From: Mesotaenium endlicherianum
Taxonomy: Eukaryota
Direction of reading: 5' to 3'
DNA: 64,000 nt
Assembly: GCA_009602735.1 (NCBI GenBank)
Contig: WELA01003517.1
Coordinates: 643,473-707,472 of the forward strand
The position numbers and the translations under genes are program-made. Below the pieces are notes generated by a model. It did not search any database. It was not told the origin of the DNA and saw only the letters and a program-made list of their open reading frames with translations. Of the stretch, positions 2,687 through 47,665 are shown piece by piece (the stretch's first letter is position 1; every line of letters starts with the position of its first letter).

Positions 2687-2756
<70 letters not shown>

Positions 2757-5700: not shown

Positions 5701-6205
5701 TGGTCTTATGTCTCGTCTCGTTGTGGAGGAGGATCACCCTTCAGCTTGTTTGTTCAGGCTTGTATCTTCTGGGCGTGAGAGTGCCTTCTATGCGCAAAAG
5801 TGCTTCGCTTGGCAGAAGCAGTCAGCCGTTCTTTGCTCGCCTGCAGATTGATTGGCATGGGAGTTCCAGGGTGGACTCTGTGGCTGTATGCGTTGTCGCT
5901 TGCGACTTATTTGTCTTGGAAGGGAGGCACACTTCAGAAGCACTTTCAAAATTCCACCGAGGCCAGCGGTGCTTGTTGCAGCTCCTTCCAGTCAAGTGCA
6001 AGACTATTAAACCAAACTGCGATACTAGTATATCACTGCCACTTCCAACACATGGATAAGCCTCAAACAAAGGACTGCCTTGGCCCCTCCTATTTCTCTC
6101 TGTCTGTGTGCTTGCAGGCATGACCTGGAGCTGAGCCCCCCCAATTTAGTGAGCCACGCCGACCACCACGCTCGCCCCGACACTCGACGTCTTCTGAGCG
6201 CATAA
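607..6205 (+). CDS. GDAP2: GDAP2-like protein (Appr-1-p/macro + CRAL-TRIO family), 3' part; 5' exons lie upstream of the window
   Basis: Eight GT-AG exons with consistent phases: 607-867, 1719-1976, 2530-2638, 3236-3306, 4143-4212, 4677-4751, 5500-5591, 6118-6205 (TAA). The spliced product RLLPLYFPRD..ERNIRISALP..LDPSFM..GGPPLSAAEE..YRGGVDAQGR..YFHS..PDFGWMKRLHHILGRKH..AIYMVHPT..VWKKVKYFDRL..QLTIPDFVFQHDLE matches plant GDAP2 homologues as recalled. Confidence 0.92.
2690..2775. repeat. (GT)n microsatellite in a GDAP2 intron
   Basis: Directly visible run. Similar (CA/GT)n tracts occur at ~9817-9841, 11829-11875, 15368-15417 and 17302-17480. Confidence 0.95.
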
Positions 6206-18995: not shown

Positions 18996-20148
18996 AGGCA
19001 GGGAGAGAGGGGGCGAGGGGGAGGGAGGGAAGAGGACGGNNNNNNNNNNNNNNNNNNNNNNNNNNNNNNNNNNNNNNNNNNNNNNNNNNNNNNNNNNNNN
19101 NNNNNNNNNNNNNNNNNNNNNNNNNNNNNNNNNNNNNNNNNNNNNNNNNNNNNNNNNNNNNNNNNNNNNNNNNNNNNNNNNNNNNNNNNNNNNNNNNNNN
19201 NNNNNNNNNNNNNNNNNNNNNNNNNNNNNNNNNNNNNNNNNNNNNNNNNNNNNNNNNNNNNNNNNNNNNNNNNNNNNNNNNNNNNNNNNNNNNNNNNNNN
19301 NNNNNNNNNNNNNNNNNNNNNNNNNNNNNNNNNNNNNNNNNNNNNNNNNNNNNNNNNNNNNNNNNNNNNNNNNNNNNNNNNNNNNNNNNNNNNNNNNNNN
19401 NNNNNNNNNNNNNNNNNNNNNNNNNNNNNNNNNNNNNNNNNNNNNNNNNNNNNNNNNNNNNNNNNNNNNNNNNNNNNNNNNNNNNNNNNNNNNNNNNNNN
19501 NNNNNNNNNNNNNNNNNNNNNNNNNNNNNNNNNNNNNNNNNNNNNNNNNNNNNNNNNNNNNNNNNNNNNNNNNNNNNNNNNNNNNNNNNNNNNNNNNNNN
19601 NNNNNNNNNNNNNNNNNNNNNNNNNNNNNNNNNNNNNNNNNNNNNNNNNNNNNNNNNNNNNNNNNNNNNNNNNNNNNNNNNNNNNNNNNNNNNNNNNNNN
19701 NNNNNNNNNNNNNNNNGGGGGGAGGGAGAAGAAAGAGGGGAGGGGGAGGATGGGGACCTAGTTTAAAAATTCGGCCGTACAGGCTGCATGTGCCGTATTG
19801 TACGATTTTGTACGCCGTATTTTCGTACGGCACAATTCGAGTATAAGTCGTTGTTGGTTTAATAATTTTTTTAAAGCGGAGTCGTTTTCTTTAGCACAGC
19901 ACTCTTTGTTCGTTCACATGAACCAGTTGGATCCCGATACGTGCCATTCTAACACGCTGTATGTCATACAGAATGACGTAGAGGAAGTACACGCGTGTTT
20001 GGTGCAAACGGAGTGTGCTCACGATAGATGCCGGCTTAATTGAGCATTTTGACTTTACGTGAGAAGTAATCTTATCTCTACCCTCTGTCTGCCGGGTCGA
20101 TGCTTCGTCATGCAAATTAAGCTACTCCATTGCTGTGCATGTTTGTAG

Positions 20149-20814
20149 CATCCGCGCACCTCTGCAAAACAAGAAAGTAAAAAGTCACGTCGCGAGAAGG
20201 TTAGGGGGGAGGACGACGTCTTTGGGGGCGCCTTCTTCAATTCTCTTAGTGTTGGAGATTTACGGCAGGTTAGATTTTTTACAAGTAACTGACGCCAGTG
20301 CACATGAAAATTACACCTATCTAGGCGAATATATACCTTTCCGGAACTACTCAGCATTTTATTTTATATGCAACGTCCTTCCTCCCCATCACTTATTTTC
20401 TGCCTCTGCCTTGCAGGTTTTTGCGGGCATGGATGGGATTGATTTGCCTATCACACGAGCCCATATTATTCAATGTCAACAAGAGGAGTGGCCGTCTGCC
20501 TTGCAAGGCCTGTTCGACTCCTGTGAAATCTACATTTCATGTCCTCTTCACTCTGTGTAAGATAAAAACAACATTCAGACTGCTGTACATCCTTGTGCTG
20601 TAGGGTTCAGGTTTTAGTTTTTCAGGGCTTTCTCCAGGTCCTGGGTCTGCTGGTTGTCTCTTTATCTCTTGCTCGCTTGCTTGGCTGGTCTAGTGGTCTC
20701 CTCCTCTCTCTCCTCTCTCTCTTTGTTGCTCGCGTTGTTGGCTGGTGTTGAGGTCTGCTCGTATGCTGGTTCTTCTCTCTTTCTCGCTTGCGTGGCTGGT
20801 CTGTTGGTCTGCCG

Positions 20815-20882
<68 letters not shown>

Positions 20883-23335
20883 NNNNNNNNNNNNNNNNNN
20901 NNNNNNNNNNNNNNNNNNNNNNNNNNNNNNNNNNNNNNNNNNNNNNNNNNNNNNNNNNNNNNNNNNNNNNNNNNNNNNNNNNNNNNNNNNNNNNNNNNNN
21001 NNNNNNNNNNNNNNNNNNNNNNNNNNNNNNNNNNNNNNNNNNNNNNNNNNNNNNNNNNNNNNNNNNNNNNNNNNNNNNNNNNNNNNNNNNNNNNNNNNNN
21101 NNCTTGCTTGCTTGCTTGTTTACCCGCTGGTCTGCTGGTGTGGTGGTTCTCTCTCCTCGCCCCCCCCTCTCTCTCTTCCCCCCTATCTCTCTTGCTGGCT
21201 TTCTTCGCTGGTGTTGGAGTCTTGGTGGTGTGCTGGTTCTTTCCCTCCTCTCCTCTCTCTCTCTCCACTCTCCCTCTCTCCCCCCTCTCTCTTGCTTTCT
21301 GTCTTGGTTGGTCTTTTGGTCTGCTGGTCCGCTGGTCCTCTCTCTCCTCTCTCCTCTCTCCTCTCTCTCTCCCCTTCTTCTCTCTCTCCCCCTCTCTCTT
21401 GCTTTCTTGACTGGTTTTCGGGTCCGGTGAGCTGCTGGTTCTCTCTCTCCTCTCTTCTCTCTCTCTCTTTCATGTTCGCTTGCTTGGGTGCTCTCTGTCC
21501 ATCACTCCTGCTCGCTTTTTTCGGCTGGTTTTGAGGTCTGCTCAGCTGCTGGTTCTGTCTCTCTTGCTTTTTGCTTGGCCGGTCCTCTGCTCTGCTGGTT
21601 GTCCCACTTCCCTCCTCTCTCCCCCCCCCTCCTGTCTCTCTCTTTCTCTTTCTCTCTATGTCTCTCTTTCTCCCTTGTTTGCTTGCTTGGTTACTCTTCT
21701 GGTCTGCTGGTGTGCTCGTTCTCTCTCCTCGCCTCCCCCTCTCTCTCTCCCCCCTCCTCTCTCTTGCTTGCTTTCTTGGCTGGTTTTGCAGGTTAGCTGG
21801 TCTGCTGGTTCTCTCTCTTCTCTCCTTTGTCTCTCGCCTCTCTCCCTCTCTCTCCCTTTCTCTTTCTCTTGCTTGCTTTCTTGGTTGGCTTTTAGGTCTA
21901 CTGGTCGGCTGGCCTCTCTCTTCTCTCTCTCTCCTATCTCTCTCTCTCCCACTCTCTGTCTTGCTTGCTCTCTTGGCTGTTTTCTTTAGGTCTTGTGGGT
22001 TGCTGGTTCTCTCTTGCCTCTCTTCTCTCTCTTTGTGATGTTCGCTTGCTTGTATGCTCTTTCTCCCTCATGCTTGCTCGCTTTGTCGACTGGTTTTGAC
22101 ATCTGCTGGTTCTGTTTCTCTTGCCTCATTGCTTGGCTGATCTGCTAGTTGTCCCTCTCCCCCGCGCTCTCTCCCCCCCCCTCTCTCTCTCTTTCTCTTT
22201 CTCTCTCTCCCTTGCTTGCTTGCTTGTCTACTCTGCTGCTTTGTTGGTCATCTCTCTCCTCTCTTCTCTCTCTCCTCTCTCTCTCCTCTCTGCCCCTCTC
22301 CCCCTCTCTTGTTTGCTCGCTTTCTTGGCTGGTTTTCAGGTCCTGTTGGCTACTGGTTCTCTCTCTCTTCTCTCCTCTCTCTCTATTGCATGCTTGCTTA
22401 GTTGCTTGTTGGTCCTCTTCTGTCCTTTCTCTCTCTCCTCTCTCTCTCTCTTACGCATTCGTTGTGCCGCTGCTGCTATGGTTCTGTTGAGCTATGCTCT
22501 CTGCTTGCTACTCTGCTTTGCTGCTGCAGTATTGCTGTGGTATTTTCCTTCTGCTGTGCTGTTGTGCTGCGAGGGGGTGCTGCTGTTCTGCCGTGCTGCT
22601 AGGCTTCTTTGCACCTGCTGCTGCTAGGGGATGCTGGTGTTCTGCTGTGCGCCTAGGTTGCTTTGCACCTGCTGCTGCTGTGTTTGTGCTGCTGTCCTGC
22701 TCTTCTTTGCTGTGCTGTGTTGTGCTGCTGTGTACTGTGCTACTCTTGCTTCTTTTGCTTTGATGCTTGATTATGCAGAACCTGTGCACCCACTTCACAT
22801 GCAGCAACCCCCACTCCCAAGCTGTTGCTGCCATGACGCTGCGGCGATTGTCACATGAAGTGGTTATGTACGGAGGGTGCTTGGCAATGGACCCATCACC
22901 AAGTGTGACGCATGTGGTCGTGTACTCCTTGCCAGACCAGCCTGTCTTATTTGACAACATTTTGACGTGGTACGTCACGACACACTCTGAGACCGTCCCT
23001 TTTGCATGTGTTTCATAGTTCTAATATCAGCATGCATCTGCATTGCTCTGCTCTGCTTTGCTTTGCTTTGGTGTACTCTTCAGTATACGGGACTTTGGGC
23101 TCTATATGGCTTGCTGACTTTTGCACAATTTTGTAATATTTGCCCTCCCATGGCATGAATATTTGTCTTATGTGTTTATGTCCTTTGGGAGGATAATGTG
23201 GGCAGTCTTGGAGAGAGTGCGCGCTCTATGCTCTTATCCCCAGGTACCAGTTTGTTGTCACACTTGTGGCTGGAGGATAGCTATAAGGCCGGCAAGCAAG
23301 TTCCATTAGCAGAATATGACCTTAGGTCTAACTGA
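20149..23335 (+). CDS. DNA ligase IV C-terminal fragment (XRCC4-interacting region + BRCT2) carried inside the hAT element; start codon unresolved
   Basis: Exons 20149-20268, 20417-20556, 22805-22969 and 23206-23335 (TGA) have canonical AG/GT borders and matching phases, giving 184 aa without stops: ..EKVRGEDDVFGGAFFNSLSVGDLRQ|VFAGMD..GLFDSCEIYI..|NPHSQAVAAMTLRRLSHEVVMYGG..VTHVVVY..|..LLSHLWLEDSYKAGKQVPLAEYDLR. This is collinear with the LIG4 XIR (D.YGDSY....D...LK.VF) and BRCT2 (GG, THVV, W..DS) as recalled. Confidence 0.75.
20640..22760 (+). repeat. Compound low-complexity repeat (CTGCTGGT / (CT)n / CTTGCTTG units) filling intron 2 of the LIG4-like gene
   Basis: Directly visible. The same family occurs in inverted orientation at 23650-24380, 25600-26524 and 36998-37840, inside transposase introns. 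Confidence 0.85.
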
Positions 23336-24261
23336 TTTACAATGTAGCGCTCATGTCATTCATTGTTTGTTAATGGCACTATTGAGACTTATTTGTCGTA
23401 TCATAATTTCACGTGTTGAGTGAAGTTGTCAATTTAATCACAGCTTCTCTTCATCTCTACACTAGCTTCTATCCTATGCTATACTAATATGTGTTTGCTG
23501 TATTCTCTTTAGCTTAGCCTCTTATATGAGTATGCATTAATTCTATTATCTCATACTTAATAATATTAGACACCCAAATTCGATGCAATGCTCACAAGTA
23601 CTGCACAATATGAAGATGAGTAGGTATGTAAGAGATGCTATGCACTAGCAAGAGAGAGAGAGGAGAGAGAACGAGTGGACCACCCAAGCAAGGCTGAGCG
23701 AGAGAGGAGAGAGCAACCCTCCAAATCAGCAAAGAAGGCAGGCAAGCAAGAGAGAGAGAGAGGGGAGAGACGCGAGAGAACCAGCAGGCTGGGCAGGCAA
23801 GCAAGCAAGGGAGAGAGAGAGAGAGAGGAGAGAGAGACGGCATACCAGCCGACCACCAGATTAGCCAAGCAAGCAAGCAAGAGACACATAGAGGGAGAGA
23901 GGAGAGAGGAGGGAGGGGAGAGAGAGAGACAAGAGAGAGAGAGAGAGAAAGAGTGAGAGAGAGAGGAGAGGAAACCAGCAAACTAGCCAAAAAAGAAAGC
24001 AAGAGGGAGATAGAAAGAGAGAGTGAGAGACAGAGAGGAGAGAGAGACGGCAGACCGGCAGACCAGCAACTCATCCAAGCAAGCAAGCAAGAGACATAGA
24101 GGGAGAGAGGAGAGAGAGAGAGGAGAGAGGAAAGAGAGAAATAGAGAGGAGGTGTGAGAGAGGAGAGAAAACCAGCAGACCAGCCAAGCAAGCAAGCAAG
24201 AGGGAGATAGAGAGGAGAGAGGCAACAGACCTGCAGACTTGCATATCAGCCAAGCAAGCAA

Positions 24262-24337
<76 letters not shown>

Positions 24338-24338
24338 N

Positions 24339-24381
<43 letters not shown>

Positions 24382-26660
24382 AGACAAATTATGGAGAATT
24401 TATAAAAAAATGTCGGAATTATGTACATGGAATTATGGAATATGGTATTATTACATCACATGGTAATGAAAGTAATACTCAACTAATGACTATGAAAGCC
24501 TATACACTGTCGATGTATGATGCAAAGTTAATCTAAATGACCTCACATATGCGAGCACTTTAAACTGTGAAGTACGACGCTATTACTCACATGGATCATC
24601 ATCAGAGAAGTATTTTGGCTCCTCTACTAGGGGCCATGACTCACTATCTAGTGCATCCTCTTCAGGATTCTCAAAAGCACCCTACTCTGCTTGAATGTAA
24701 GCCTCAATGAACCTCCCAGGCACAGGGGCTTTACCAGCACGCCTCTTGCCTTCCAATAGGTGAATGTTAGAATGGACCTTAACCAACTTCTCAGCTCTAA
24801 TCTGTGTTAGACGGTTCCGCTTCTTGTTATGCACAAAGTCATACTCAGACCAGATACGCTCATAAGAGCTCGCTGACGTACACAGGCCTAAGACCTTAAT
24901 AGCAAGCTCTTGCAGCTCAGGATTGCTAGAACCATACTCATGCCACCATGCAGGAGCACTAAATTCTGTGCATTCATCATCAGCATCTGGAGCAGCAAAG
25001 CTGCCTGATTTAGCCTGATACATCCTCACCTGCTCCGTTATGACCTTTCTGTCAGCCTTATGAGGCACCAAACGCTCCAAAATCAAATTCCACCCAGCCT
25101 TAACCTCTTTCACACTATGCTGGGCATGGTCCTGGTATTGAGGGTGCAAAACATAGCCAGCTGCGTGCATAGGTGAGTGAAAAAAGTCCCACCTATCTTG
25201 GACAAGGTCCACAAAGAAGTTCCTCTCCGCAGCGGTAAAGCCAGGAAGCTTCTTGATGAACTTCACGTAGTCACACAACTTACACCACACCTGCCCAATG
25301 ACAGGCTGGACCCCGTCACATAGTCGAAACAGCTGCACGATTGGCTCCGCCAACTTGATGATCTTCTCCACTTGCTTCCAGAAGACGGGGTCGTTGATGC
25401 ATTGAGTACGCTCGTTGCACTTCGCATACTCATCAAGAGAGAGCTTGTCCTTCCACTGGGTCCAAGCATCTCTGACCACCATGCACTTCAAGCCCTCTTT
25501 CACCTGCAGTATCATGAGGAACACAGATGTAGCCCACTATTAGTGGCAACAAGGAGAAGCACTACAACACAATTGGGACAAAATATAGCAATAGAGAGTG
25601 AGAGACTGAGGAGAGAGAGAGGGAGAGAGGAGAGAGAGGAAAGAGCGAGCCAGCAGACCAGCAGACCAGCAGAATAGCAGAACAGCAAACCTGAAAACCG
25701 GCGAACAAAGCAAGCAAGAGTGAGAGAGGGGGAGAGAGATAGAGAAGAGAGAGAGAAAGGAGAGGAGAGAGAGGCAGCAGACCAGCAGACCTGCAAACCA
25801 GCCAAGAAAGCAAGCAAAGGAGAAAGAGGGGGAGAGAGAGAGAGGAGAGAAAAGAGAGAACCAATAGACCAGCAGACCGGCCAAGCAAGCGAGCAAGAGA
25901 GAAGAACCAGCATACCAGCAGACCTTAAAACCAGCCGACAACTTGGGCAAGAGAGAGAGAGGAGAAAGAGGAGAGAGAGGAGAGAGAGGACCAGCAGACC
26001 ACCAGACTTCGAAAGTAGCCAAGAAATTGAGCAAGAGGGAGAAAGAAAGCCAGAGAATGGAGAGGAGAGACTCCGAAAGAGGGAAAAAAGAGGAGATAGA
26101 CAATGAGCAGACCTGCAGACCAGACCAGAAAGCGAGCAAGGGAGAGAGGAGAGAGAGAGGAGAGAGGAGAGAGGAGAACCAACAGACTAAACAAGCAAGC
26201 AAGCAAGGAAGAGGGAGAGAGGGAGGGAGAGAGAGAAGAGAGGAGAGAGAGAACCAGCAGATCTACAGAGCCGCCAAGCAGGCGAGCAAGGGAGAGGAGA
26301 GAGAAAGGAGAGGAGAACCAGCAGAGCAGCCAAGCAAGCAAGCGACAGAGAGAGAGAGAGGGGAGAGGAGAGAAGTCTAGCATACTTCCTGACCAACCAA
26401 GCAAGCGAGCAAGAAAGAGGAGAGAGAAAGGACAGAACCAACAGAGCAGCCAAGCAAGCAAGAGAGGAGAGAGGAAGGAGAGACCCAACAGAGCGGCCAA
26501 GCAAGCAAGCGACAGGGAGAGAGGTGTCGTGCGTTACGAGGTTGAGTGCGCACCATAGGCATAAGCAACACATCATAGGCAAGCAGGCTTTGCTGCAATG
26601 GAGTCTATAATACATGTGGCGTTATAGCCAAAAAGGGAGTCAAGTCGAAAATGTTTCAAT

Positions 26661-27661
26661 TAAGAAATGTGTACTCTCCAGAGTGAGCACCTCAAGACTG
26701 TACTCTGGTAGGAAAACAACTAATGAAGTATGGCCCAAAAGATCACTGGAAGCACATCTTGATCTTCAGAGTAGTCCTATGGCAAGGGCGTAAGCTGTGA
26801 CTTTGCTCACCACTTGTGAAGTTCTTCGAGTGACTGGAAGCCTGGAGGGCTTGCTCTTCACAAGAGAGTAACTAAGTGGTCCTGAAAACACAAGAGATAA
26901 AAGTGTAAGCTTTACTAATAATCTCTGTTACTTACACCTGGCATAATGAACTTCTAAAAGATGTCTCTTCTAGGGACATCTCTAGTACTTATACTCCTGG
27001 AATTCCGGCGGGGTATGCGGCGGATCCAGTGTATGTAGTCACTCTAGGAGGCTCTCCTATGTTCACTAATGTGTACAAGGCATGTACTAGCACTCCTATA
27101 GGCTAAGCATAACTCAAACCAATCAAAGCAAGGTGCGTAGGATATGCTACGTGGTCCTCATTGGCCGAGCATACCTTGGGTAATTCTACCTACATAGCGC
27201 CTCAAATGTAGATCTGGAAATTAAGGAAGCTTCCTCTAGGAGTAGGTGATGCAGTCACCAAGTTATAGCCTCAATGATGCACATATACTATGGAAATGCA
27301 AAGCTTATGTAGGCTAAGGGGCTCGCGGATTTGTGCGCACAAAGCTTGGGGTCACGAAGAGCCAACAATGTCACCTTTGGGGACATTGAGTCACAAATTG
27401 GGCTTTGGGGAAGTTTCGCTAGGGATCGGTAGGTGACGCGGACTAGATCGCACCTATCTCGCTCGATACTTGACCAAATGACGCGAAATTGGTGTCATTC
27501 GGAAGATGCTTCGACGCGCTACACGTTGGTGACTTGGAAATCTAGAAAAGGTCAACATACGGATGCGTAAAGTCAATGCAAAGTCGGCCTTCCTAGGTTG
27601 ATGTTCCGCACATGTGGAGCTTGGTTTTTATACGACAACCTCGACTCAATAAATCATGACA
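26661..27661 (-). repeat. Split direct repeat X, internal/3' copy (1001 bp)
   Basis: About 97% identical to 35997-36997. Confidence 0.95.
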
Positions 27662-27663
27662 GC

Positions 27664-27799
27664 TGTCGTGCGTTACGACGTTGAGTGCGCACCATAGGCA
27701 TAAGCAACACATCATAGGCAAGCAAGCTTTGCTGCAATGGAGTCTATAATACATGTGGCGTTATAGCCAAAAAGGGAGTCAAGTCGAAAATGTTTTAAT
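27664..27799 (-). repeat. Split direct repeat Y, internal copy (136 bp); second copy at 26525-26660
   Basis: Near-identical to 26525-26660. It is preceded on - by a polypurine tract (G8 at 27808-27801). Confidence 0.95.
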
Positions 27800-27813
27800 T
27801 CCCCCCCCAGCTC

Positions 27814-29292
27814 TCAGCCTCTAGCTGATGGGCTGTGTACGCTGCCTAAGGCTAGCTCAGTGCAGTCTCCGCAGAACCAGTCTCCAGTTGGCACGCGGGC
27901 AAGCGGCGGGTCGAGGCAGCCGATGTGGAAGCCGAGGTTGCAGCTGTTGCAGAGCAGCATCTTGGCCTCCTGGCCAGTGCTGTGACAGATCTGGCACGCC
28001 CAGTCTTTGGGCGGCCGCGCGTTGCGGGGACGGACCTGCAAGTCAAGTTCAGGAAGGTGGCACGGCCCACAGTTCTTCGTGTGGTCCTTGTGGAGACGGC
28101 CATCTGCGCCTTCCAGCTCCAGGACTCCTGACGCCAAGGCACGCTTGACGCGCAGGATGACCGGCGAGCTGCTGGTGTCGAGGGTGTTTTTCGTCTGGCG
28201 TCGCAGGTACACGAAGTCACCTGCGGAAAACTGCAACACCCGCGGATGATAGGATCCTCCACGAGTCATGGCGTACCTCAGTGTGTCGCGATGCTGTGCG
28301 GTGCTGAGGTTATCCATGGCCATGGGCATCAGGCGCCGAAAGAGCTGAGCACGCTGCCCGATAAAAGCACTCCATGTCTCGGGACTGTCCAAGTCCAAGA
28401 CGTTCTCGGCCACAGTCCTGGCTGCTGCTGGCAGGATGGGCTGTCGGCCGTAGAGAAGGAAGTAGGGAGAGTGCGAGGCCAGGGAGGCCTGCTTACTGAA
28501 CCTGTACCCCATCGCCAGCCAAGGGAGGGCGTCATCCCAGTGGGTACGGTCGTGGGCAAGGCAGTACTTCCGCAACCCTAGCTTGACGGTCTGCACCATG
28601 CGCTTGGCGAGGCCGTCAGCCTGAGGATGATCGCGGGAGGTGGTGCGGTGGTCGATCATAGAGCGCTCCAGAAGCTTCTGAAAGCTGCCCTGGAACTCCT
28701 TGCCCTGGTCGGTCAGCACCTCAGCGCAGCCACCAAAACGGCTAAGGACCTGATTGAGGAAGGCCTGAGCGATCCCCTCACTGGCCTTGCTGGGCAAGGG
28801 CACGAGCTCGATCCACTTGGACATGTGCTCAATCATCACCAAGACATAGAGGTTGCCCTGGCGAGACTTGGGCAGCTCTCCAGCCAAGTCAAGCGACCAC
28901 CTGTAGAACAACCCCTGAATAGGAAGGGGGCTGAGGGCGACGGTGCGCGCTGTGAAGCTCGAGCGCACACGGTCGCAGAGAGTGCAGCTGCTGACGACAG
29001 CGGCGACGACCTTAGTCATGCCGTGCCACCAGTACTCGGCCTGAAGAAGACTGAGGGTGTGCTTGACACCGAAGTGCCCGAGGGACTCGTGCACTTGGCG
29101 CACCAGCTGACTGCGTATGGCAGGCTCAGGGACCACCAGGATGGAGCCGTGTGCCATCACGCGCCGCACGCGCCCCTCTATGAAAATGAAGTCGCGGCTG
29201 TGCCTGAGGATGCGATCGCACTCGCGTGCGCTGACATCGGGTGCCATCTCCTTGGCCGTGACGTACTGCAGCACTAGGGCGTCGTCCCACAC
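27814..29292 (-). CDS. DDE integrase with C-terminal PHD finger (pol segment)
   Basis: HHCC motif (HESLGH..CTLC), core WSLDLAG..VLTDQGKEF..HPQADGL, and C4HC3 PHD finger CQIC..CNSCNLGFHIGC..WFCGDC. Confidence 0.9.
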   Translation of the reverse strand: MWDDALVLQYVTAKEMAPDVSARECDRILRHSRDFIFIEGRVRRVMAHGSILVVPEPAIRSQLVRQVHESLGHFGVKHTLSLLQAEYWWHGMTKVVAAVVSSCTLCDRVRSSFTARTVALSPLPIQGLFYRWSLDLAGELPKSRQGNLYVLVMIEHMSKWIELVPLPSKASEGIAQAFLNQVLSRFGGCAEVLTDQGKEFQGSFQKLLERSMIDHRTTSRDHPQADGLAKRMVQTVKLGLRKYCLAHDRTHWDDALPWLAMGYRFSKQASLASHSPYFLLYGRQPILPAAARTVAENVLDLDSPETWSAFIGQRAQLFRRLMPMAMDNLSTAQHRDTLRYAMTRGGSYHPRVLQFSAGDFVYLRRQTKNTLDTSSSPVILRVKRALASGVLELEGADGRLHKDHTKNCGPCHLPELDLQVRPRNARPPKDWACQICHSTGQEAKMLLCNSCNLGFHIGCLDPPLARVPTGDWFCGDCTELALGSVHSPSARG

Positions 29293-29296
29293 GTCA

Positions 29297-30900
29297 TCAG
29301 GGACTGCGTTGCCAGCTGTCTTGATCCTCTGCCGCTGCCAGGGTCAATCGTCGAGTGGTGACGGTCACCATGTCCAAGCTAGTGAGCCCTGCGGGCCACA
29401 CATCGCCGTCCACGGTGAAGGCCAGGAAGGCCGCCGCGTGCCAGGCCACCGGCTCATCCTCATCGTGGCGGGCCACAGTGAGATCCCTCGAGGAGGGCAG
29501 CGGGTTACGGCTAAGACCGTCAGCCTCCAGGTTGGTCGAGCCTGGACGGTGGTGCACGTCGAAGGTGTACTCCTGCAAGATAAGCGCACACCGTGCGTAC
29601 TTGCCGGTCAAGCGCTCCGACGTCATGAGCCACTTAAGTGGCTGATGGTCGATGACCAGGCGGAAGTGCGTGCCATAGAGATAGTGCCTGAAGTGCACGA
29701 TCGCCCAGACCATTGCCAGGCACTCCCCCTCGTAGGAGCCGTAGTTGCCTTCCGCGCGGTTGTTGCTGCGGCTGGCGTAGGCCACCACATGCTCGAAGCC
29801 GTCATGCTCCTGCACCAGCACAGCGCCCAGCCATGCCTGCGACCAGTCGGTGTGGAGGATGAAGGGCTTTGCGTAGTCAGGACGCCGAAGCACAGGAGCG
29901 CTCACCAGCAGCTCCTTGAGCTTATCGAATGCCGCCTGCTGCTCTGGTCCCCACACGTAGGCAACGCCTTTGCGGAGCAAGTCGTTGAGCGGCTTGGCTA
30001 GCTCGCTGAACCCTGGCACGAAGCGGCGGTAGTAGTTGGCGATGCCGAGGAAGGCCCGCAGCTGCGAGAGATCTGTAGGAGGTGGGATGCCTGTGATGGC
30101 CAAGATCTTTGCCAGCTAGGGTGCCAAGCCGCTGGAGGAGAGCAGGTGGCCAAGGTACTCCACCTCGCGGGTCCTAAAAGTGCACTTGCCTGGATGGCAC
30201 TTGAGCCCAGCGGCCTCCAAGCGGTCCACGACAGCAGTGATGTGCGCCACGTGCTCCTCAAACGTCTGACTGAAGACGAGCACGTCATTGATGTAGCATC
30301 GGGCAAAGGACAGCCCGGCAAGCTCCTTATCCATCACCCTCTGAAAGGTAGCTGGCGCGTTCTTCAACCCAAACGGCATCACCACCCACTCGTAGAGCCG
30401 CTGTGCTCCCCAAAACGCCGTCTTATGCTGGTCCTCCTCGGCGATGGGAATCTGGTTGAAGCCCTGACGCAGATCCAGCACTGAGAACCAAGTGCACGTG
30501 CCAATGTCGTCAAAGATCTTGTCAGGCGTCGGCATAGGATATCTGTCCTGCTCGGTGACCTCGTTCAGCGTACGATAGTCACCGCACATCCTCTTCTCGG
30601 ACCAGTTGCCCGAGGCATCCTTCTTGGCTGGCATAACCGTGGGTGCGACATAGCGAGAGGAGGACTCCCAAATGAGCCGACTGTCCTCCAGCTTGCCTGT
30701 CTGCGCGCTGATCAAGCCATCCTCAAAGTGGCTGTAGCGATAACGCTTCAGGAAAATGGGCTCCTGCGACGTGAGAGTAATCCGCATGGGGTCCCCCCTG
30801 TAGTGCCTGAGATCGTGCATGCCGCTGGCAAAGCTGGTGCTGCGCCTCCCGTCCAGCAGTGCCGTCAACTGTGCAGCCTGCGCCTTGGTGAGTGTCTCCC
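29297..30900 (-). pseudogene. Reverse transcriptase + RNase H (pol segment), interrupted by TAG at 30116
   Basis: RMCGDYRTLN..DRYPMP..LDLRQGFNQI..MPFGLKNAPATFQR..CYINDVLVF (YxDD altered to YIND); RNase H FILHTDWS..VAYASR..EGECLA..DHQPL. Confidence 0.88.
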
Positions 30901-31369
30901 CCAGCTTCCATGTCGATGGAGCTGGTGGCGTTGCCTGGCCTGCAGCTGGAGTCTCTTGTCTTGCCGCTGGGGTAGACTGTGGTGCTGCAGGTGTCACCTG
31001 CCTTGCAGCGGTTGGCGCTTGGCCTGCCGCGGGTACCTGCCCCGTGGCAGCTGCGGCCAGCTGCCTGGCACCGTCTGCCTGCGAGCGAGGAAAAAGAAAG
31101 GGTGACCGGGACTCTCTGGGTCGCTGTGAGGACTCCTCTCTCCGCCGTCCCCCCCCAAGCGAACCAAAGTCCTCCCTGCGCGGCGGTGGGGAGGGGGGGC
31201 GCGCGCGCGCCGGCGGTGCAGGCCCTGCGCGCTGAGGATGCCACGTCGTGCCGGGCGGGGCCTGATTGTCATCGTCGGTGGAGTCATCGTCCATATCATC
31301 GGCAGGCCGAGGCAGCTCGGGATGCCGGGCTGCGGCGTAGAGAGGCGCCAAGGCCTGCGTCTGCAGCAG

Positions 31370-32310
31370 AATCCACGTGAGGACGTTGGCGTCGATCGCC
31401 TGCCCCAAGAGGCGAATGCGGTTCACCTCAGTGAGACCGTCCACCTGTGTGAGATGCGGCGGGAAGCCCATGGCACGCTCCATCTTCGCAGGGCGCGGCC
31501 TGTCAAACATGCCAGTCTCCAGGTCGATGACCATCCCGCGCTGATCTCCGACAAAGGCGTCGCTGTCGTAGCGGCTGACAAAAGTCGGCAGCGCGCGAGT
31601 GACGTCATGCAGGACCTCACACTGCGCCACGGAGGGATGTGGTAGTGCAGTCACGCGCTGGGCCATACGAGGGGCATCGAGGATGGAGTCAACGGTGCGT
31701 GGGTGACGTGGATGAGAGGCGGCCAACGCCTCGAGAGTACCTGGCATTGCCAGGTTCGTGAAGTAAGCGCGGACGCGGTGCGCAAAGGAACCAATCTGGG
31801 CAGCGTCGATGACGGCCTCGTGGCCGACGTAGCTGCTGCAAAGAGCAAAGTCGGCGCTAACATTGGGTCGGTGATCGTGGCGCGCGGCCACGTTCTCCAG
31901 GACCCACGCGAGTGTGTGCGGCGGCTGGCGATCCTCAACAATGTTGAGGACGCGGAGCAAGGCCAGAAGAGGGCCGTGCGGGGATCGCTGAGCGCCCTGC
32001 CACGCCCGGCTCTGGAGAAGCCCTGGCACTCCCAACCGGCGATGACGAGGTCAATGGGCCCAAGGCGGGTGACATGCTCGACGGTGATGTCGCGGATGTC
32101 CATGGGCCAGTCTGTCTGAGCGCGGCGGAATGCGTGCGCGGGAAGGAGGTCTGGGAACCGCTCGTGGCACAACGCCATCTGCCGACGGGCCACCTGCTGG
32201 GCCTCAGGATTGGGATCGTTGTAGACGTAGCGGTGCACCGGGATGCCGGCCTCTAAGGTCGCGAGCAACCCGGTGGCGATGCCGGCGAAGAGCTCGACGA
32301 GGACGATGCC
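31370..32310 (-). pseudogene. C5 cytosine DNA methyltransferase domain (DNMT3/DRM-like motifs) inside pol; frameshift near 31960
   Basis: Motif I VELFAGIATG, motif IV DLVIAGWECQGFS, motif VI WVLENV, motif VIII HRVRAYFTNL, motif IX MERAMGFP, motif X RIRLLGQAID. The motifs are split between ORFs 31651-32481 and 30116-32035. Confidence 0.88.
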
Positions 32311-32556
32311 CTGTCGGAGACTAGACATGAGCCGTGTGCGTGCGGCGGCCGTAAATGGGTTGCGACTGGGCGGCCTGCTGTCGGTGCGGGCCACCTTGGA
32401 AGGAGGTGACCCGGAGGGACCGTCGCCAGCGATGTGGCTGCGAGGGACACTGGCGCGCGGAGCTGTAGGGGCCAATATCACAAAATCTGCCTCGGAAGAA
32501 AACTGAGCGTCGTCGCCAGCTGAGAGGGGCCGGAAGGGCAGAGTGCGGCGTCGGTC

Positions 32557-33609
32557 TCAGGTCTCGCCAGTTTGATGCGAGGCGGCGTGAGGGGGCGGCA
32601 GAGAGTCCATACTGTACTGAATGGCCACGCCAACAGGCACGTCGTGGCGAACGCGGACGTCGGTCCTCGCGGACGGCTCGCCGCGAGAGGCCGAGACCCC
32701 CTGATGAGCCGTAGGCGCTGCGGCCGCACCGCGAGCAAGGGCGGCGGCAGCGATGGCTGTGCTGGCCATGGCGAGGGCCTCAGTGGCATCGGCCGCCATC
32801 TGCCTCATCATCGCGCTGTGGGCAGTGCAGATGCGGATCTGCTCCCTGGCCTGGGCTGCCAGGACATCCGCCTGCTGCTGCGGCGTGAGGTGGAGCTCGG
32901 CACTAGGTAGGTCCGGCTCCTCGTCCTGTGGCTTGAGCAGGTCCACCCCCACAGAGATCTCCTTGTCCTTGGGCCCGTCCTTATCGGTCTTGACCACTGG
33001 CCGGCCATCGCCCAGCCCCATGAAGCCATAAAGAGCGAACACTGCAGGGCGGCAATCGACATTATCAAGGGGCAAGGATGCGGTGCGCGTCCCCCCTGTC
33101 CTCCAGTCGGGACGATAGAAGACGCGCTCCGCCCAGTTGTCGGCCGCGGCGCCAATGGGAAAGAGCACGTCTTGCCCTAGGAGCACATCAAAGGACTTGG
33201 AAGGAGTGACGAGTGCGTGCCGATGGATGGTTGTCTCGTCTGCCGTGCCTGGGCGCAGAGTGAACAGTAGCGCCAACCTCGTACGGCTGGCGACGGTCTC
33301 GGACGTGCCGGCGGCGGTGTTAAAGCGCGTCGGAGAGTCCTCCAAGTCGACGGAAGAGAGTCCCAGCTGACGGAAGTAGCGGAGGCTTATGAGAACCGGC
33401 TGCGCGCCTGTGTCGAACATGATGTGCTGCGGCGCCTGGGTGTTGACGAGCACGATCCCCTGCGAATTATCCAAAAACGCGGCATTAGGAGTGCTGATCA
33501 TCCTGCGCTCATGCGCAGAGCGCGCGGGCGTGGATCGCACCGCGGTGGCGGCATCGGCCGTCGACCTCCTGGCGGCGGTGCGCAGCGTGTCTCTGCGCGA
33601 CTGGAGCAT
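32557..33609 (-). CDS. Retropepsin-like aspartic protease segment
   Basis: IMFDTGAQPVLI..FDVLLGQD motifs; flanked by in-frame stops at 33613 and 32557. Confidence 0.75.
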   Translation of the reverse strand: MLQSRRDTLRTAARRSTADAATAVRSTPARSAHERRMISTPNAAFLDNSQGIVLVNTQAPQHIMFDTGAQPVLISLRYFRQLGLSSVDLEDSPTRFNTAAGTSETVASRTRLALLFTLRPGTADETTIHRHALVTPSKSFDVLLGQDVLFPIGAAADNWAERVFYRPDWRTGGTRTASLPLDNVDCRPAVFALYGFMGLGDGRPVVKTDKDGPKDKEISVGVDLLKPQDEEPDLPSAELHLTPQQQADVLAAQAREQIRICTAHSAMMRQMAADATEALAMASTAIAAAALARGAAAAPTAHQGVSASRGEPSARTDVRVRHDVPVGVAIQYSMDSLPPPHAASHQTGET

Positions 33610-33612
33610 CAG

Positions 33613-35948
33613 CTAAGCGGCCTGCCTCGTTGCCTCCATGGCGACGCCGAGCTCTACGAAGGAGACCACCGGCATGCGGTGCAGTGCTAGAGAGATGACC
33701 TCGGCGCTGAGCTGCACCGTCGTCATAGGCAAAGCGAGCGCATGTGGCGTCGGCTCTGCTGAGGTCGTGGAGGGCTCTAGGATGCGGAAGGAACGGGGCA
33801 ACCGCGGTGCCTCCTCCGTCCGGCGTCCCTGGTCTGGCCTGGCGCGCTTATGCGGGACAACGGGCCGACTGGCCGGTGCTACGAGCGTGTGCTCGCGGCT
33901 TGCGCGCCCGACTGCGGAGCGGTTGCCGAGTGGCTGCGCGCATGCGCAGCAGGCCAGAATGGCCGCTGCTGGCGCAGCCGGCAAACCTGCCGCGCATTCT
34001 GCCGCGGGGCCTGTTGCAGCGCCGTGCGCGCAGCTTGCCGCGAGGCCTGCCGCGGGGCCCGTTGCGAGATCTGCCGCCGCGCCTGCCGCGCAGCCGGTGG
34101 CGGGAACTNNNNNNNNNNNNNNNNNNNNNNNNNNNNCAAGGACGGAGAGGGAGGCTGCGGCCGGACCAGCTGTAGCCGTGCACGCCGCCAGGTGCCCCCG
34201 TCCCTGCCTGCCAACTGTCGCTACGCGGGCTGACGGGAGGCCTGCTGGTGCCAGCAGGGAAGCGCAAGCCAGGGGCTCTATCGGGGCCTCGGCTGGCGTG
34301 CGGGCTGGCCCGCGTGCGCGCGAGCTTGCGCCGGGAGATGGCGCAACCGCGCAGTCGTGCAGCCTGCCATTCGGCAGCCTGTTGGGACTCCAGCTGTCGC
34401 TACTGACAGCTGTCAGGGCGGTGCGCACAGGGCTAGAAAAGCTGCTTGTGCGGGCGCCTGCAGCTCTGGCAGCGGGCGCTACGTCGTAATGCGGACGTGC
34501 GCGGGGCTGCGGCGCTGTCGCTGAGCTTGATGTGTGCGCTGAAGCTGTGCGTGCGCCAGCTGTCAGTGCCGTGGCATAGGACGGTGGAGCGGACGCGAGG
34601 AGTGCTCCGCACACGTCATAGTTATTGACGTCGACGAGGCCACGGAGTCTAGCGATTTCCGCGTTGGCCTCCACGAGGGCGTCGCTGACGTCGTCGAAGC
34701 TGCAGTAGTCGGCTCCAGGCATCAATGCGGCGTCCGTCGTGGCCGTAGCTGCTGTCATCGCGGGGCGGCCACCCATACGAGGGTTGCGTGCGCCTCGCTG
34801 TCCTGCTGAAGGCGTAGGGCCGTCGCGAGCGCGTCCGTTCTCGACGTCGCGCTTCTTCTGCAGACAGACGATCTGCAGGTGGCCGGCCTTGTCACAATAG
34901 GTGCAGTCGCCGGGCTTGCCATTCTGCGCGAGAGTGCAGTTCTGGCGTGAGTGGCCCGTCTTCCCGCAGGACCAGCAGGGATCGCTCGTATTGGCAGCCA
35001 TGGCAATGCGGCCACGCGTAGCTCCGCGCTGCTGCGTCTGCTGGGGCAGCTGAGAGCGCCGAGGCTGCTGCTGCTGCGACTGGGGCTGGCGGGCAGGCGT
35101 AGTGCGCGTCGTAGAAGACGGCAGCACTGAGGCCTCCTGGCGCACGCCCGTGGATGCTAAGCCCACACGATTGCTAATGTTGCTCCGTGCGGCGGCCAAG
35201 CTTTGCTTCTCAACGGAGAGGTAGGCCTGCTTCAGAGAATACTCTGAACCGTGGCGGTCGATGAGGGGGACTACGGCCCTCTCCCTCAGACGCGGCTCAA
35301 CGGCGCGCAAGAAAATCTCCGCGGCCTCCCGGTCAGTGACAGTGCCGGCATCGCGGCGGAGGTGCACCAAGCGGCGGTACATCATGCGGATAGTCTGGTT
35401 CTTGCGTCGGAAGAAATGGTGCAGCTCGTACACCTTCTCTTCAGTTGCAGCCTGGAATTGTGTCTTCAGGATGTTCCAGAAGGCTTGCACTGGATCAGCT
35501 AGCAGGGTTGCACTGGTGGGTCACCCACAAGCTCAGTGCGGGTTCGGAGCTCGGCCTCTTTCTCACGGAAGGTGTCGCGGGCCTTGTGCGAGAGGTAGCG
35601 CATAAGCGTGTCGAAGACGTCGCGCTTAGTCAGCGTGGGTGTCTTGAGCTTTGCGGCCGCGAAGTCAGCCTGAAACTCCGAGATGGTATCTTCCAGATCA
35701 CAGGTGCCTGGCCTACCGCTGAAGCGGTAGGCAGACCTGTCAGTCTTGACCTCGTGGTCACCTGCCATGGGATACCAGAAATCGTAGTGAGCCCACTGGG
35801 GAGATGGCTCAGAAGCAACTGCCGTGTGCTGGAGAGTAGGTTGCTCTTCTTCGGCGGGTTCAGTGATAGTGCTGAGATCTAAGTCTGAGTCTTCTCCACT
35901 AACCCCTTTGTAGTATGGCTGATAAGAAAACCCACTACGGGTAGGCAT
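33613..35948 (-). pseudogene. Gag with two CCHC zinc knuckles; frameshift near 35500
   Basis: ATG at 35948 lies just downstream of the primer site; knuckles CWSCGKTGHSRQNC and CTYCDKAGHLQIVC. Confidence 0.8.
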
Positions 35949-35984
35949 ACGCTGAAGGTTCTAATTGCTTGCAGGCAAAGAGAG

Positions 35985-35997
35985 ATCTTTTAGAAGT
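35985..35997 (-). promoter_or_regulatory. Putative self-priming primer-binding site
   Basis: ACTTCTAAAAGAT on - abuts repeat X. It is a perfect 13-nt complement of 36298-36286, which starts 31 nt after the TATA-like box. No tRNA-type TGG PBS is present. Confidence 0.7.
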
Positions 35998-36997
35998 AAG
36001 GAATGTGTACTCTCCAGAGTGAGCACCTCAAGACTGTAATCTGGTAGGTAAACCACTAATGAAGTATGGCCCAAAAGATCACTGGAAGCACATCATGATC
36101 TTCAGAATAGTCCTATGGCAAGGGCGTAAGCTGTGACTTTGCTCACCACTTGTGAAGTTCTTCAAGTGACTGGAAGCCTGGAGGGCTTGCTCTTCACAAG
36201 AGAGTAACTAAGTGGTCCTGAAAACACAAGAGATAAAAGTGTAAGCTTTACTGATAATCTCTGTTACTTACACCTGGCATAATGGACTTCTAAAAGATGT
36301 CTCTTCTAGGGACATCTCTAGTACTTATACTCCTGGAAATCCGGCGGGGTATGCGGCGGATCCAGTGTACGCAGTCACTCTAGGAGGCTCTCCTGTGTCC
36401 ACTAATGTGTACAAGGCATGTACTAGCACTCCCATAGGCTAAGCATAACTCAAACCAATCAAAGCAAGGTGCGTAGGATATGCTACGTGGTCCTCATTGG
36501 CCGAGCTTACCTTGGGTGATTCTACCTAGATAGCGCCTCAAAAGTGGATCTGGAAATTAAGGAAGCTTCCTCTAGGAGTAGGTGATGCAGTCACCAAGTT
36601 ATAGCCTCAATGATGCACATATACTATGGAAATGCAAAGCTTATGTAGGCTAAGGGGCTCGCGGATTTGTGCGCACAAAGCTTGGGGTCACGATGAGCCA
36701 ACAATGTCACCTTTGGGGACATTGAGTCACAAATTGGGCTTTGGGGAAGTTCCGCTAGGGACCGGTAGGTGACGCGGACTAGATCGCACCTATCTCGCTC
36801 GATACTTGACCAAATGACGCGAAATTGGTGTCATTCGGAAGATGCTTTGACGCGCTACACGTTGGTAACTTGGAAATCTAGAAAAGGTCAACATACAAAT
36901 GCGTAAAGTCAATGCAAAGTTGGCCTTCCTAGGTTGATGTTCCGCACATGTGGAGCTTGGTTTTTATACAACAACCTCGACTCAATAAATCATGACA
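35997..36997 (-). repeat. Split direct repeat X, 5' terminal copy; contains a TATA-like box (TATAAG on -, 36329-36324)
   Basis: Direct repeat of 26661-27661; starts TGTCATG on the - strand. Confidence 0.95.
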
Positions 36998-39900
36998 GAG
37001 GGGAGAGAGGAGAGAGAGGACCAGCGAACCAGCAGAACAGAAAACAAGCCAAGTAAGAACCATCAGACTGCAGACCTGAAAACAAGCCAGCAAAGCCAGC
37101 AAGAGGGAGAGAGATTGCCAAAGAGAGATAGAAGAGAGAGAGAGAGAAGAAAAGAGAGGAATGAGAGGAGAGAGACAACCAGCAGTCCTGCAGACCAGCC
37201 AAGCAAGCGAGCAAGAGAGGAGGGAGAGAGAGAAGAGAGGAGAACAAACAGAGCATCCAAGCAAGAAAGCGACAAAGAGAGAGAGGAGAGAAGAACGAGA
37301 AGAGAGAGGAGAGAGGAGAGGAGAGAGAGAAAGGAGACAAGAGAACCAGCAAAGCATCAGACCGGCCAAGAAAGCGGGAAAGAGAGAGAGGAGAGATAGG
37401 AGGGAGAACCAACAGACTAGACAAGCGAGCAAGCAAGGGAGTGAGAGAGAGGGAAAGAGAGAGAGGAGAGGAGAGAGGAAGGAGAGGAGAGTGACAACCA
37501 GCAGACTTGCAGACCAGCCGAGCATGCGAGCAAAAGAGAGGAGAGAGAGAAAGGAGAGGACCAAGAGAGCAGCCAACAAGCAAGCAACAGAGAGAGAGGA
37601 GAGAGGAGAGAGAGAACCAGCGGACCGGCAGAATAGAAAACCAGCTAGAGAGTGAGATGGGAGGGAGAGGAGAGGAGAGAGAAAACGAGCAGACCAACAG
37701 ACCAGAAACGAGCCAAGAAGGCAAGCAAGAGAGAGAGGGGGAGAGAGAGTGAGAAGAGAGACAAAGGAGAGGAGAGAGAAGCAGCAGCACAACAGACCAA
37801 CTAACCACCCAAGCTAGCAAGCAAGACAGAGAGAGAGCCAGCAGACACATCACAGCAGCACACCATATCGAGCCAATAGCAAAACACCAGCACCTCAAAC
37901 CAGCAGTTACTGAACTACAGCAGCAACACAAGCAAAAGCACATTAAAGCAATGTGGAGGCCCTTTGCTAAATGTAGTGTGAGTAGCATGCATGAGGCCAG
38001 CACAAGCATCGCTTCATGAGCAGATTTGTTATGAATGCATATTTTATTCAGCCGCTCCAAGAGGATGAAGGAGGTAAGAAATCGCGTCGCGTTGGGTAAT
38101 TTGAGCTTCAACTGGCCTTCTTCATGATAGAGAGATAGAGGCTTGTGGTGGTTTTTGATGAATTTCACAAGATTCCTCGCCCGCTCCACAGTTTGTTGAA
38201 CCCAATCAACCTTCACGATAGCTTCCAACATGAGGTCCAAGCCGTGCGCCGCACACGCACTCCACGTGATGGCAGGGTACTTAGCTTCTATGAGTCTACC
38301 TACCACAGCATGACAGCCTTAGCACACGGAAGAATAAGTAGCATCACAGCAGCTGACACTAGATTGCACAGCTCTGTGACAGCAGCACAAGAGAATTGCA
38401 GCCTCACACCAACACAACAGCATAGAAATAAAGCAAAAAAAGCAACACAGCTGCGCAAAACCAGGCCTCCACACTTGCAATACAACATCACGATATAGTA
38501 AAGTATAAAAACACAAGGACATACCTGCATTCTTGCATGCTCTAGCAAAATTTGTGCATATCATGAGAACATGCTCTGCACCAATCTCTGCTATGACCTC
38601 CTCAAAGCATTTGGCGATGAACTTGCCACTCTTGAACTTGCCGTCACAGTTGACCCCCTTCACCATTTTTTCACCCATGGGAGTCAAAAAAATGAAGTTG
38701 ATGATTGGTCTTTTGGTGATGTTGGTCCTGTATATGAATAAAAAACAAATTATTAGGCACAAAAAAAGAAGGCGAGATAAGGATAAGGTAAATACAACAG
38801 CAACACAGCAGCACAACAACAGCAGCAGCAGATCAGCAAACCAGTCTACCAGCACACAACCCAAGGGCACATAATATATGAGTACAGCAGCAGAGCAAAC
38901 CAGCACAAGCACAAGCGCAAGCATAAGCAAAGCAAGCAACAGGCCAGCAGCAGCAGCAGCAACAACAAAGCAAAGCTACAATGCAGCAGTGGTAGCAGAA
39001 GACTTACCAGCCATCGGAGCATATGACACAGCCTGTGACTTTTAGCTTCTTCATGAATTGGCGAAGCTCGATGTCACAACATGCCATTTCTCGATCCAGA
39101 AGCTTTGTCCTTAGGTGCCACATTTGGGGTCCAGAGTAGTTTGGCCCAGCACGGGATATAGAGTCAAGCATGAGTCCATAGGACGCACAATTGGCAGCAT
39201 TAAAAGATATGCCATTGGCATAAAACCACTTGGCAATTGCCTAATCTGCTAGGTCACGAAAACCTGGTTTCCATACCTCAGGGAGGTCAGTTTGCCTACC
39301 AGAACCTTTAGCAGATCCTCCAGAGGAAGAGGAAGGGCAAAGATTGCCGCTCCTCTTCATTTCTTTCTCAAATGCCAGCTGCTCCATAGTCCGCTCATGA
39401 CGTGAACGCTTTTGCAGAAGCTTCATTTGAGCAAGAGGAACTTTGTAAGATCTAGACCTTTCATCTCATAGCATTGGGCAGCAAAGAAAGCATGAACGTT
39501 GAATGGAACTTGAGGACAGCCTGCGATTCCTTGCCCTTGAACACACCCCAAATGGTACCTAATTCTAAATGCACCTCCCAAGTTGATACGGCCACAATAC
39601 GTACAATTATTTTGGTAGGCACCTGGGGAATCAGGCTTGTCTACCTTATGAACTTGGTCATGCTCTGAGAGTAGAATCAGATAGACCTTGGTTTTGCCCT
39701 TCTCAAATTGATGTCAAGCGAGAAGTGCTGCAGGGAGTAACTAGCTCACATTCCTCCTCGTTGTCAAATTGACTTGAATGAGTGTCGTCTACGTCCTGTT
39801 CAGACATTGCAGGATATGAGAAGAGATAAGTAAGAGTGAGGACCCTCGAATCCATAAAGCAGTATTAGATACAGCGTTCAACGTGAGGTATGAATTTCGG

Positions 39901-43578: not shown

Positions 43579-43902
43579 CCTGCTCAATCATAAACACAAT
43601 GCAGTTAATGAAGTCATGATATTTTGCCGCTACTGAGTGCCCTTGATGAAGAGGAACGTGATCGGGAGAGTTCCTAGTGTGGAATACCTGGTGTGAGTGA
43701 ATATAAGGGAAAATTGAGTTAGAGAGCAAGTGAGTGTGAGCGCAGGTTGAGTGTGTAATATGGTGATCAGAGAATACCACTCCCTCCAACTTAATTTTAA
43801 AGGTGGGCTGCCTGTCACAACTGTCACTAACTGTCACATCCCCCTCCAACTTATATGGAGACAAGACCTCCTGTCACCTTCCCGTGTCAACTGAAATGAC
43901 TG

Positions 43903-47597: not shown

Positions 47598-47665
47598 AAT
47601 ACCTGCTACGAGGGCAGCTAGTGACGACTCACTATCTCTAGCATCCTCACAGTCAGTAGACTGGA

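Follow-up and report, generated by a model that had tools for sequence, protein, structure and literature searches.

The hAT element and its transcribed cargo

The window, by which we mean the whole stretch of 64,000 nucleotides analysed, is eukaryotic draft sequence with N gaps, and it contains a hAT element spanning positions 19757-40469. This span is set by 15-bp TIRs that form a perfect inverted pair (left, 19757..19771, plus strand; right, 40455..40469, minus strand) and by an 8-bp TSD, of which the left copy (19749..19756) is repeated exactly on the right (40470..40477). A multi-exon hAT transposase pseudogene occupies 23566..39800 on the minus strand and was recognised both by the Pfam Dimer_Tnp_hAT domain (E 2e-8) and by tblastn with P0001, a protein containing DUF659 and Dimer_Tnp_hAT that aligned to the element in five blocks; a word-indexed homolog search with the transposase returned 1 match among 1029 candidates. 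The element thus shows the short TIRs, 8-bp TSD and hAT transposase domains that define the hAT superfamily. It is not an autonomous copy, since its transposase carries at least two frameshifts (near 39715 and 39470) and at least two stop codons (at about 39243 and 24682). One transposase intron hosts a nested gypsy-type LTR retrotransposon (26525..36997, minus strand) with LTRs that are 97.0% identical over 1005 bp. The gene upstream of the element is of the CRAL/TRIO type, and an Rfam scan of 19717-26600 gave 0 matches.

Between the left TIR and the transposase, on the plus strand, lies the cargo gene, whose four exons join in phase into 184 stop-free codons, as the initial annotation had proposed. 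Exon 1 (20149..20268) encodes the XIR hairpin and most of helix 1, and exon 2 (20417..20556) the end of helix 1, the sole in-frame AUG (at 20429), the loop/helix-2 region and the start of BRCT2; exon 3 (22805..22969) encodes the BRCT2 core, and exon 4 (23206..23335) the BRCT2 C-terminal helix and the stop. The gene is convergent with the transposase, and the two stops are 230 bp apart, in agreement with the distance first read from the sequence. An open join is weak proof by itself, because many other GT-AG choices in the same enumeration are also open.

We compared 6 of the 24 listed sequencing runs with the locus, including the RNA runs X1, X16, X21, X22 and X24 and the DNA run X13; RNA junctions were listed when supported by at least 3 reads or one contig. 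All three introns of the model are represented in RNA: intron 1 (20268>20417) by 5 reads in X24 and one contig each in X1 and X16, intron 2 (20556>22805) by 19 reads in X24, and intron 3 (22969>23206) by 36 reads from 22 starts in X24, 1 read in X21 and one X1 contig. The proposed exon start at 20149 fared differently, as no junction or loose end into this position was listed in 4/4 runs, at an X24 depth there of about 20, and RNA coverage is continuous from about 19777, where depth rises. The three introns of the original gene model therefore stand, and its first exon boundary lacks support from the RNA.

The RNA begins with a 5' leader exon (19777..20058, plus strand) whose donor at 20059 is used. 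From this donor, an exon-skipping form (20058>20417, GT..AG) omits the XIR exon; it is supported by 12 reads in X24, 2 in X22 and one X16 contig, and in raw reads it is commoner than the form that retains exon 1 (12 versus 5 in X24, 2 versus 0 in X22). Among contigs, X16 shows both leader forms and X1 only the exon-1 form. The segment 20059..20148 (plus strand) may be an ancestral 90-bp intron, with its donor used and its acceptor at 20148 unused; failure of that acceptor would explain both the exon skipping and the intron retention. Intron 2 (20557..22804, plus strand), filled with a CT-rich satellite that recurs in the transposase introns, has an alternative acceptor (20556>22779) that shifts the frame and accounts for 15 of the 34 exon 2-3 junction reads, against 19 for the in-phase junction. 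The cargo introns are retained in part of the RNA.

The stranded poly(A) runs X21 and X22 contributed 6 and 5 reads, respectively, with exon depth on the first-mate-minus side, which in most stranded libraries indicates sense RNA. Contigs of X1 and X16 extend upstream across the left TIR, so some cargo transcription begins in the flank, which may drive it. Expression in X24 amounts to roughly 30 FPKM, as a rough estimate, and one X1 contig spans 23205-23636, across the cargo end into the convergent spacer and the transposase end.

LIG4-type identity and coding potential

The joined cargo aligns with P0003 at 76 of 160 identical residues (48%), gap-free, with an E-value of 5e-49. P0003, listed under the source name jgi/Mesen1 ME000070S09131, which we take to denote the alga Mesotaenium endlicherianum, is a 211-aa model restricted to XIR and BRCT2, with a Met start just ahead of the XIR. 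Together with P0005 it was retained from 7 phmmer matches; the other five, P0002, P0004 and P0006-P0008, being repeat proteins, were set aside as due to chance. Identity to P0003 extends over all four exons (8/18 in exon 1, against P0003 residues 2-19; 16/47 in exon 2; 30/55 in exon 3; 22/40 in exon 4), with the loop/helix-2 region the least conserved part (5/22). P0003 itself matched Pfam DNA_ligase_IV (PF11411) over residues 2-24 (E 0.01) and Pfam BRCT (E 0.054), both below the cut-off, and its residues 2-105 matched human LIG4 759-865 at E 0.047, behind the Pol lambda BRCT at E 0.019; its AlphaFold model has a pLDDT of 35.

In the register of the human protein, D23, F30, F42 and M45 of the cargo correspond to D759, F766, F778 and I781, with G27 in place of D763. 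The XIR residues at the F766 and F778 positions are kept, and Met45 is also found in P0003. Exon 3 was scored as BRCT at 0.93 in the ESM Atlas (188/256 features) and matched P0003 by phmmer at E 3.6e-8. The ESM Atlas gave no usable match with exon 2, single exons searched against Pfam and PDB gave blank or irrelevant matches, a word-indexed homolog search found nothing at E 10 or better for exon 3 (16 candidates) or exon 4 (5 candidates), and a search with profile A2 reached LIG4 only at E 0.32. A metagenome locus, L001 (24 aa, 58% identity), was set aside as a chance match, being surrounded by stops and leaving the other exons unmatched.

The cargo covers the XIR and BRCT2 interaction region as described in PMC4786802, where the XIR of human LIG4 comprises a hairpin (759-770) and a clamp (771-803). 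The LIG4 assignment is indirect but coherent in order and register, and the LIG4 XIR-BRCT2 origin first proposed is supported by the LIG4/BRCT-type match to P0003. The feature is genuine and expressed, and its identification was correct. That the exons are simply the host LIG4 locus was rejected: they sit between TIRs flanked by an exact TSD, the RNA shows no splicing from an exon further upstream, and the neighbouring gene on that side is of the CRAL/TRIO type.

The coding potential of this copy is more restricted than its 184 open codons. Exon 1 contains neither an AUG nor a near-cognate start, in line with the remark in the initial annotation that no start codon was resolved, and we found no usable start in the cargo frame ahead of the XIR in either the leader or exon 1. 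An AUG at 19918 is in the cargo frame and is closed by two TGAs just ahead of the used donor at 20059; the frame of another, at 20110, ends with the TAG in 20146-20148. These are the same letters that had earlier been read as an acceptor. The first in-frame AUG is therefore that at 20429, which opens a 140-aa frame, the sole long AUG-started frame in both leader isoforms; it is preceded by 5 other AUGs in the exon-skipping form, all within the leader exon, and by 8 in the exon-1 form. The leader ORFs matched no Pfam family.

Because the AUG at 20429 (M45) maps to human I781, past the hairpin and helix 1, this copy yields at most a 140-aa piece from helix 2 to BRCT2, in which the hairpin and helix 1 are missing and the helix-2 region is kept. 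A translated product with hairpin and helix 1, as in the dominant-negative fragments, cannot be assigned to this copy. The proposal that this particular copy produces an XIR-BRCT2 decoy is consequently unsupported, given the lack of a start in exon 1, the unused acceptor before 20149 and the position of the AUG. This copy is decaying, and an XIR-containing protein is not supported for it.

Age, composition and selection

The initial annotation had also argued from the contrast between the open cargo frame and the lesioned transposase. At the lesion rate of the transposase (at least 4 in about 2.27 kb), the probability of 0 lesions in 552 nt is 0.38, or 0.23 with 6 lesions; an open frame next to the damaged transposase is expected by chance and this argument carries no significance.

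Other features point to a longer history within the element. Over exons 3-4, 143 X24 reads fell into identity bands as 136/7/0/0, all at least 95% identical and with no variant rows, and down to 82% identity they gave no sign of another LIG4-like RNA; a host gene that is quiet or nearly identical to the cargo could go unnoticed among these reads. In simulations of neutral drift to 82% nucleotide identity, the 552 nt remained stop-free in 2.6% of cases (12% at 91%), with indels uncounted, and drift to 48% amino acid identity left the frame open in 1.1%. The GC3 of the cargo (97/184, 0.53) is close to that of the transposase (0.58) and far from that of six host exons (277/302, 0.92; P 8e-23), for which frames were picked by eye and one was confirmed by Pfam. 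Furthermore, cargo intron 2 shares 47-90 12-mers per kb with three stretches of transposase intron, about 100-fold more than the 0.1-0.8 per kb obtained by the same measure for the flanks and the retroelement.

From the DNA run X13 came 41 contigs, with 10/16/8/7 in the successive identity bands, that cover exons 3-4, the spacer and the end of the transposase; they are short and may lie outside hAT elements, and the comparison extends over 22760-23640. Of 77 variant rows, 40 were listed, 21 of them exonic, with rows private to one low-depth contig dropped. Among the rows listed, 10 exonic changes are synonymous and 11 nonsynonymous, where 24-30% synonymous would be expected; this excess corresponds to P 0.014-0.065 and an omega of about 0.34-0.47, with rows that are non-independent. 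On two diverged contigs at 22805-22885, 6/8 of the rows listed are synonymous (P about 0.005-0.011). When the listed nonsynonymous rows were polarised by P0003, 2 were private to this copy, 5 were derived elsewhere and 4 remained unpolarised. The private changes gave this copy His104 and Tyr168, in contrast to Leu and Cys in P0003 and in every X13 contig that covers these positions, a pattern that fits a copy in decay. Cargo sequence of 430 bp is absent from one contig, and the host gene may be among the contigs. Neither the window nor the X13 contigs (22760-23640) showed an intact copy of the family.

The lack of a close LIG4 RNA, GC3, the shared satellite and the X13 versions together make it likely that the cargo is an old gene of the family, long resident in the element and kept under purifying selection. 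The X13 pattern would fit, if weakly, an active lineage under selection whose inserted copies decay. A quiet or weakly expressed close donor, or an element that arrived horizontally, would explain both the divergence and the GC3 without selection on the cargo. As for the expectation in the initial annotation that a passively captured fragment would be silent, confined to one copy and free of constraint, the cargo is transcribed, and the X13 rows listed show further versions with a synonymous excess, if a weak one. Overall, its observations are partly confirmed and its interpretation is partly supported.

Candidate functions and known systems

Copy gain by cut-and-paste transposition depends on host repair of the empty donor site. 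We tentatively favour, at a probability of about 0.4, the reading that a broken hAT element carries a long-standing, selected accessory gene of LIG4 XIR-BRCT2 type, which in intact copies would act as an XRCC4-binding decoy. This reading is preferred because clamping XRCC4 without an enzyme attached would be the simplest role for the captured span. The catalytically empty clamp is predicted to compete with ligase IV for XRCC4; such competition would slow end-joining of the hairpin-opened donor site, slower end-joining would favour gap repair from the sister chromatid, and this repair would in turn restore the donor copy and raise copy number. A bolder form, in which the hAT family makes an anti-NHEJ factor of its own out of the tail of LIG4 that binds XRCC4, with this copy worn and others in the genome intact, is rather improbable; it would hold at the family level and not for this copy. 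Hairpins left by hAT excision are opened and then end-joined at donor sites, and plant Ac/Ds footprints show microhomology in 85-100% of cases (PMC5873905), so the limiting route may be one other than LIG4. The Gly at the D763 position, the weak conservation of helix 2 and the missing start ahead of the XIR also weigh against the decoy.

The main rival, which we regard as quite possible, is passive transduplication: the element would have taken the LIG4 3' end from a close but silent paralogue of the host, or from a different organism prior to horizontal transfer, and amplified it, with transcription from the TIR or the flank and splicing at inherited sites yielding no useful protein. It is favoured by the XIR without an AUG ahead, the 5-8 upstream AUGs, the 15 of 34 exon 2-3 junctions that are out of frame, the retained introns and the chance-level openness of the frame, and it agrees with accounts that captured fragments are mostly pseudogenes (PMC13317346) and that transcription is common in Pack-MULEs, about 40% being transcribed and 9% translated (PMC5861414). 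It sits less well with the absence of RNA from a close donor (82% identity or above), with the transposon-like GC3 and the intron satellite common to cargo and transposase, with the synonymous excess among versions and with a 160-aa gap-free alignment at 48% identity. If capture was passive, the locus represents an ordinary, though tidy, gene capture by a transposase-coding hAT.

The remaining readings are less probable. It is improbable that, here or family-wide, the protein at work is the 140-aa one started at AUG 20429, with loop, helix 2 and BRCT2, acting on XRCC4 via helix 2 or on another repair factor. Its frame is the only long one with an AUG in both leader isoforms, Met45 is shared with P0003, X24 expression is roughly 30 FPKM, and helix-2 fragments compete with and displace the XIR from XRCC4 in vitro (PMC4786802); yet helix 2 is its least conserved region, the untranslated exon 1 is conserved about equally (8/18), many AUGs lie upstream, and BRCT2 alone does not block XRCC4/LIG4 assembly (PMC4786802). 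Still less probable is a selected accessory gene acting as a recruiter, which would bring XRCC4/XLF to transposon breaks for donor healing or gap filling and lower the cost to the host. This idea shares the evidence of age and constraint and agrees with the repair of hAT donor sites through hairpin opening and end joining (PMC5873905), but the cargo has no DNA-binding or transposase-fusion part, being a separate, convergent gene, and LIG4 fragments make human cells more radiosensitive instead of aiding them (PMC4786802). A role at the RNA level, in which cargo RNA overlapping the convergent transposase RNA would give small RNAs acting on host LIG4 by silencing or titration, is very improbable: the convergent arrangement with its 230-bp spacer, the X1 contig across it and the use of captured sequences as siRNA sources (PMC13317346) would suit it, against which no expressed host target was seen at 82% identity or more, stranded exon reads are essentially all sense and Rfam gave no match.

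Returning to the selected decoy gene, a family-wide XIR-BRCT2 gene, if true, would allow a single small protein to show directly whether a transposon steers host repair, and plant gene targeting could gain a natural NHEJ inhibitor that is genetically encoded. The transposon accessory genes known to us counter silencing. Purifying selection on captured domains in other TEs has been described in 8/24 testable cases (PMC3597677). The accessible text of the review PMC13317346 mentions no DNA-repair cargo ("DNA repair" occurs 0 times), and searches of open-access literature listings showed neither a LIG4 fragment nor an NHEJ modulator borne by a transposon.

Among known systems, Pack-TYPE elements such as Pack-hAT (Gisby and Catoni 2022, PMC8903248) resemble the element in combining TIRs and a TSD with a transcribed, intron-containing coding fragment of host origin, and an intron-bearing captured gene fragment does lie between the TIRs here. 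They are defined as lacking a transposase, whereas this element has a broken one and would fall into the class that packFinder treats as autonomous-derived (PMC8903248); in addition, its cargo forms one coherent module for interaction, distant from the closest homologue known and element-like in composition. The human LIG4 XIR-BRCT2 fragment (PDB 3II6; PMC4786802) has the same hairpin, helix-loop-helix clamp and BRCT2 without catalytic core or BRCT1, and the F766 and F778 positions are common to both; the cargo differs in its Gly at D763, its weak helix 2, and a hairpin and helix 1 that are not AUG-translatable in this copy. P0003 shares the XIR-BRCT2-only layout over the gap-free 160 aa, and may be either part of a full LIG4 gene whose model was split or another mini-gene that stands alone.

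Viral NHEJ antagonists, such as adenovirus E4orf6/E1B-55K, which degrades LIG4, and phage Mu Gam, likewise place a mobile element in opposition to host end-joining, for which the cargo would be a candidate under the decoy reading; unlike the cargo, neither is known to derive from LIG4 or to travel on a cut-and-paste transposon. The cargo is expressed at the RNA level, as accessory genes of the KIU/VANC kind are, and several diverged versions in X13 tile the cargo, the spacer and the transposase end on short contigs. KIU, the Ulp1-carrying VANC genes of Vandal MULEs, belong to another superfamily, have anti-silencing as their target and have a function shown by experiment, while the cargo is known from sequence and RNA (PMC13317346 for KIU). 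KIU, and probably the cargo as well, represent a domain of host origin that a family of transposase-coding DNA transposons has kept as an additional gene, and in this respect the cargo most resembles the KIU/Ulp1 genes of Vandal elements.

The nearest homologue of the cargo and its RNA level

The gene model of P0003, the 211-aa algal protein nearest to the LIG4-type cargo, comprises only the XIR and BRCT2, with a methionine placed immediately before the XIR; the model is either one part of an annotation that was split or another LIG4 mini-gene. At the RNA level, the cargo showed a spread of about 20-fold among the RNA-seq runs X21, X22 and X24 (6 reads in 6.9 M records for X21 vs 143 in 9.3 M for X24), a run-to-run difference that could reflect condition or library type.

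RNA from relatives at the left end of the hAT element

RNA reads from related element ends agree with this element over its first ~130 bp and are divergent beyond, at 19885-19934, and in three reads other sequence is joined at 19934. These divergent and joined reads derive from other members of the family, which are expressed. The same interval is a possible capture boundary.

Intron satellite and neighbouring genes and elements

Across the convergent cargo and transposase genes, copies of the CT-rich satellite in the introns are arranged as long, imperfect inverted repeats, with 20600-22760 opposed to 23640-24380, 25600-26520 and 37000-37900. Elsewhere, the window carries a multi-exon host gene at about 565-6200 (+), with a CRAL/TRIO_2 match and a GC3 of about 0.92, and, where the window ends, a gene with DUF2043 (62479-63999, -). 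Two gypsy elements with a chromodomain lie at 41900-48300 and 52400-57300, both on the reverse strand, and the gag and pol frames of the latter are long and open.

The nested LTR retrotransposon

The first ~135 bp of the left LTR are duplicated at 27664-27800, immediately following that LTR, and this stretch is not included where the left and right LTRs match; it is a rearranged or nested LTR end. The element also encodes a PHD finger past its integrase (27817-29343, E 5e-11) and, upstream of its RT, a C-5 cytosine DNA methylase domain (31654-32556, -; Pfam E 3.9e-6). Retroelements carrying a methylase are already known from algae.
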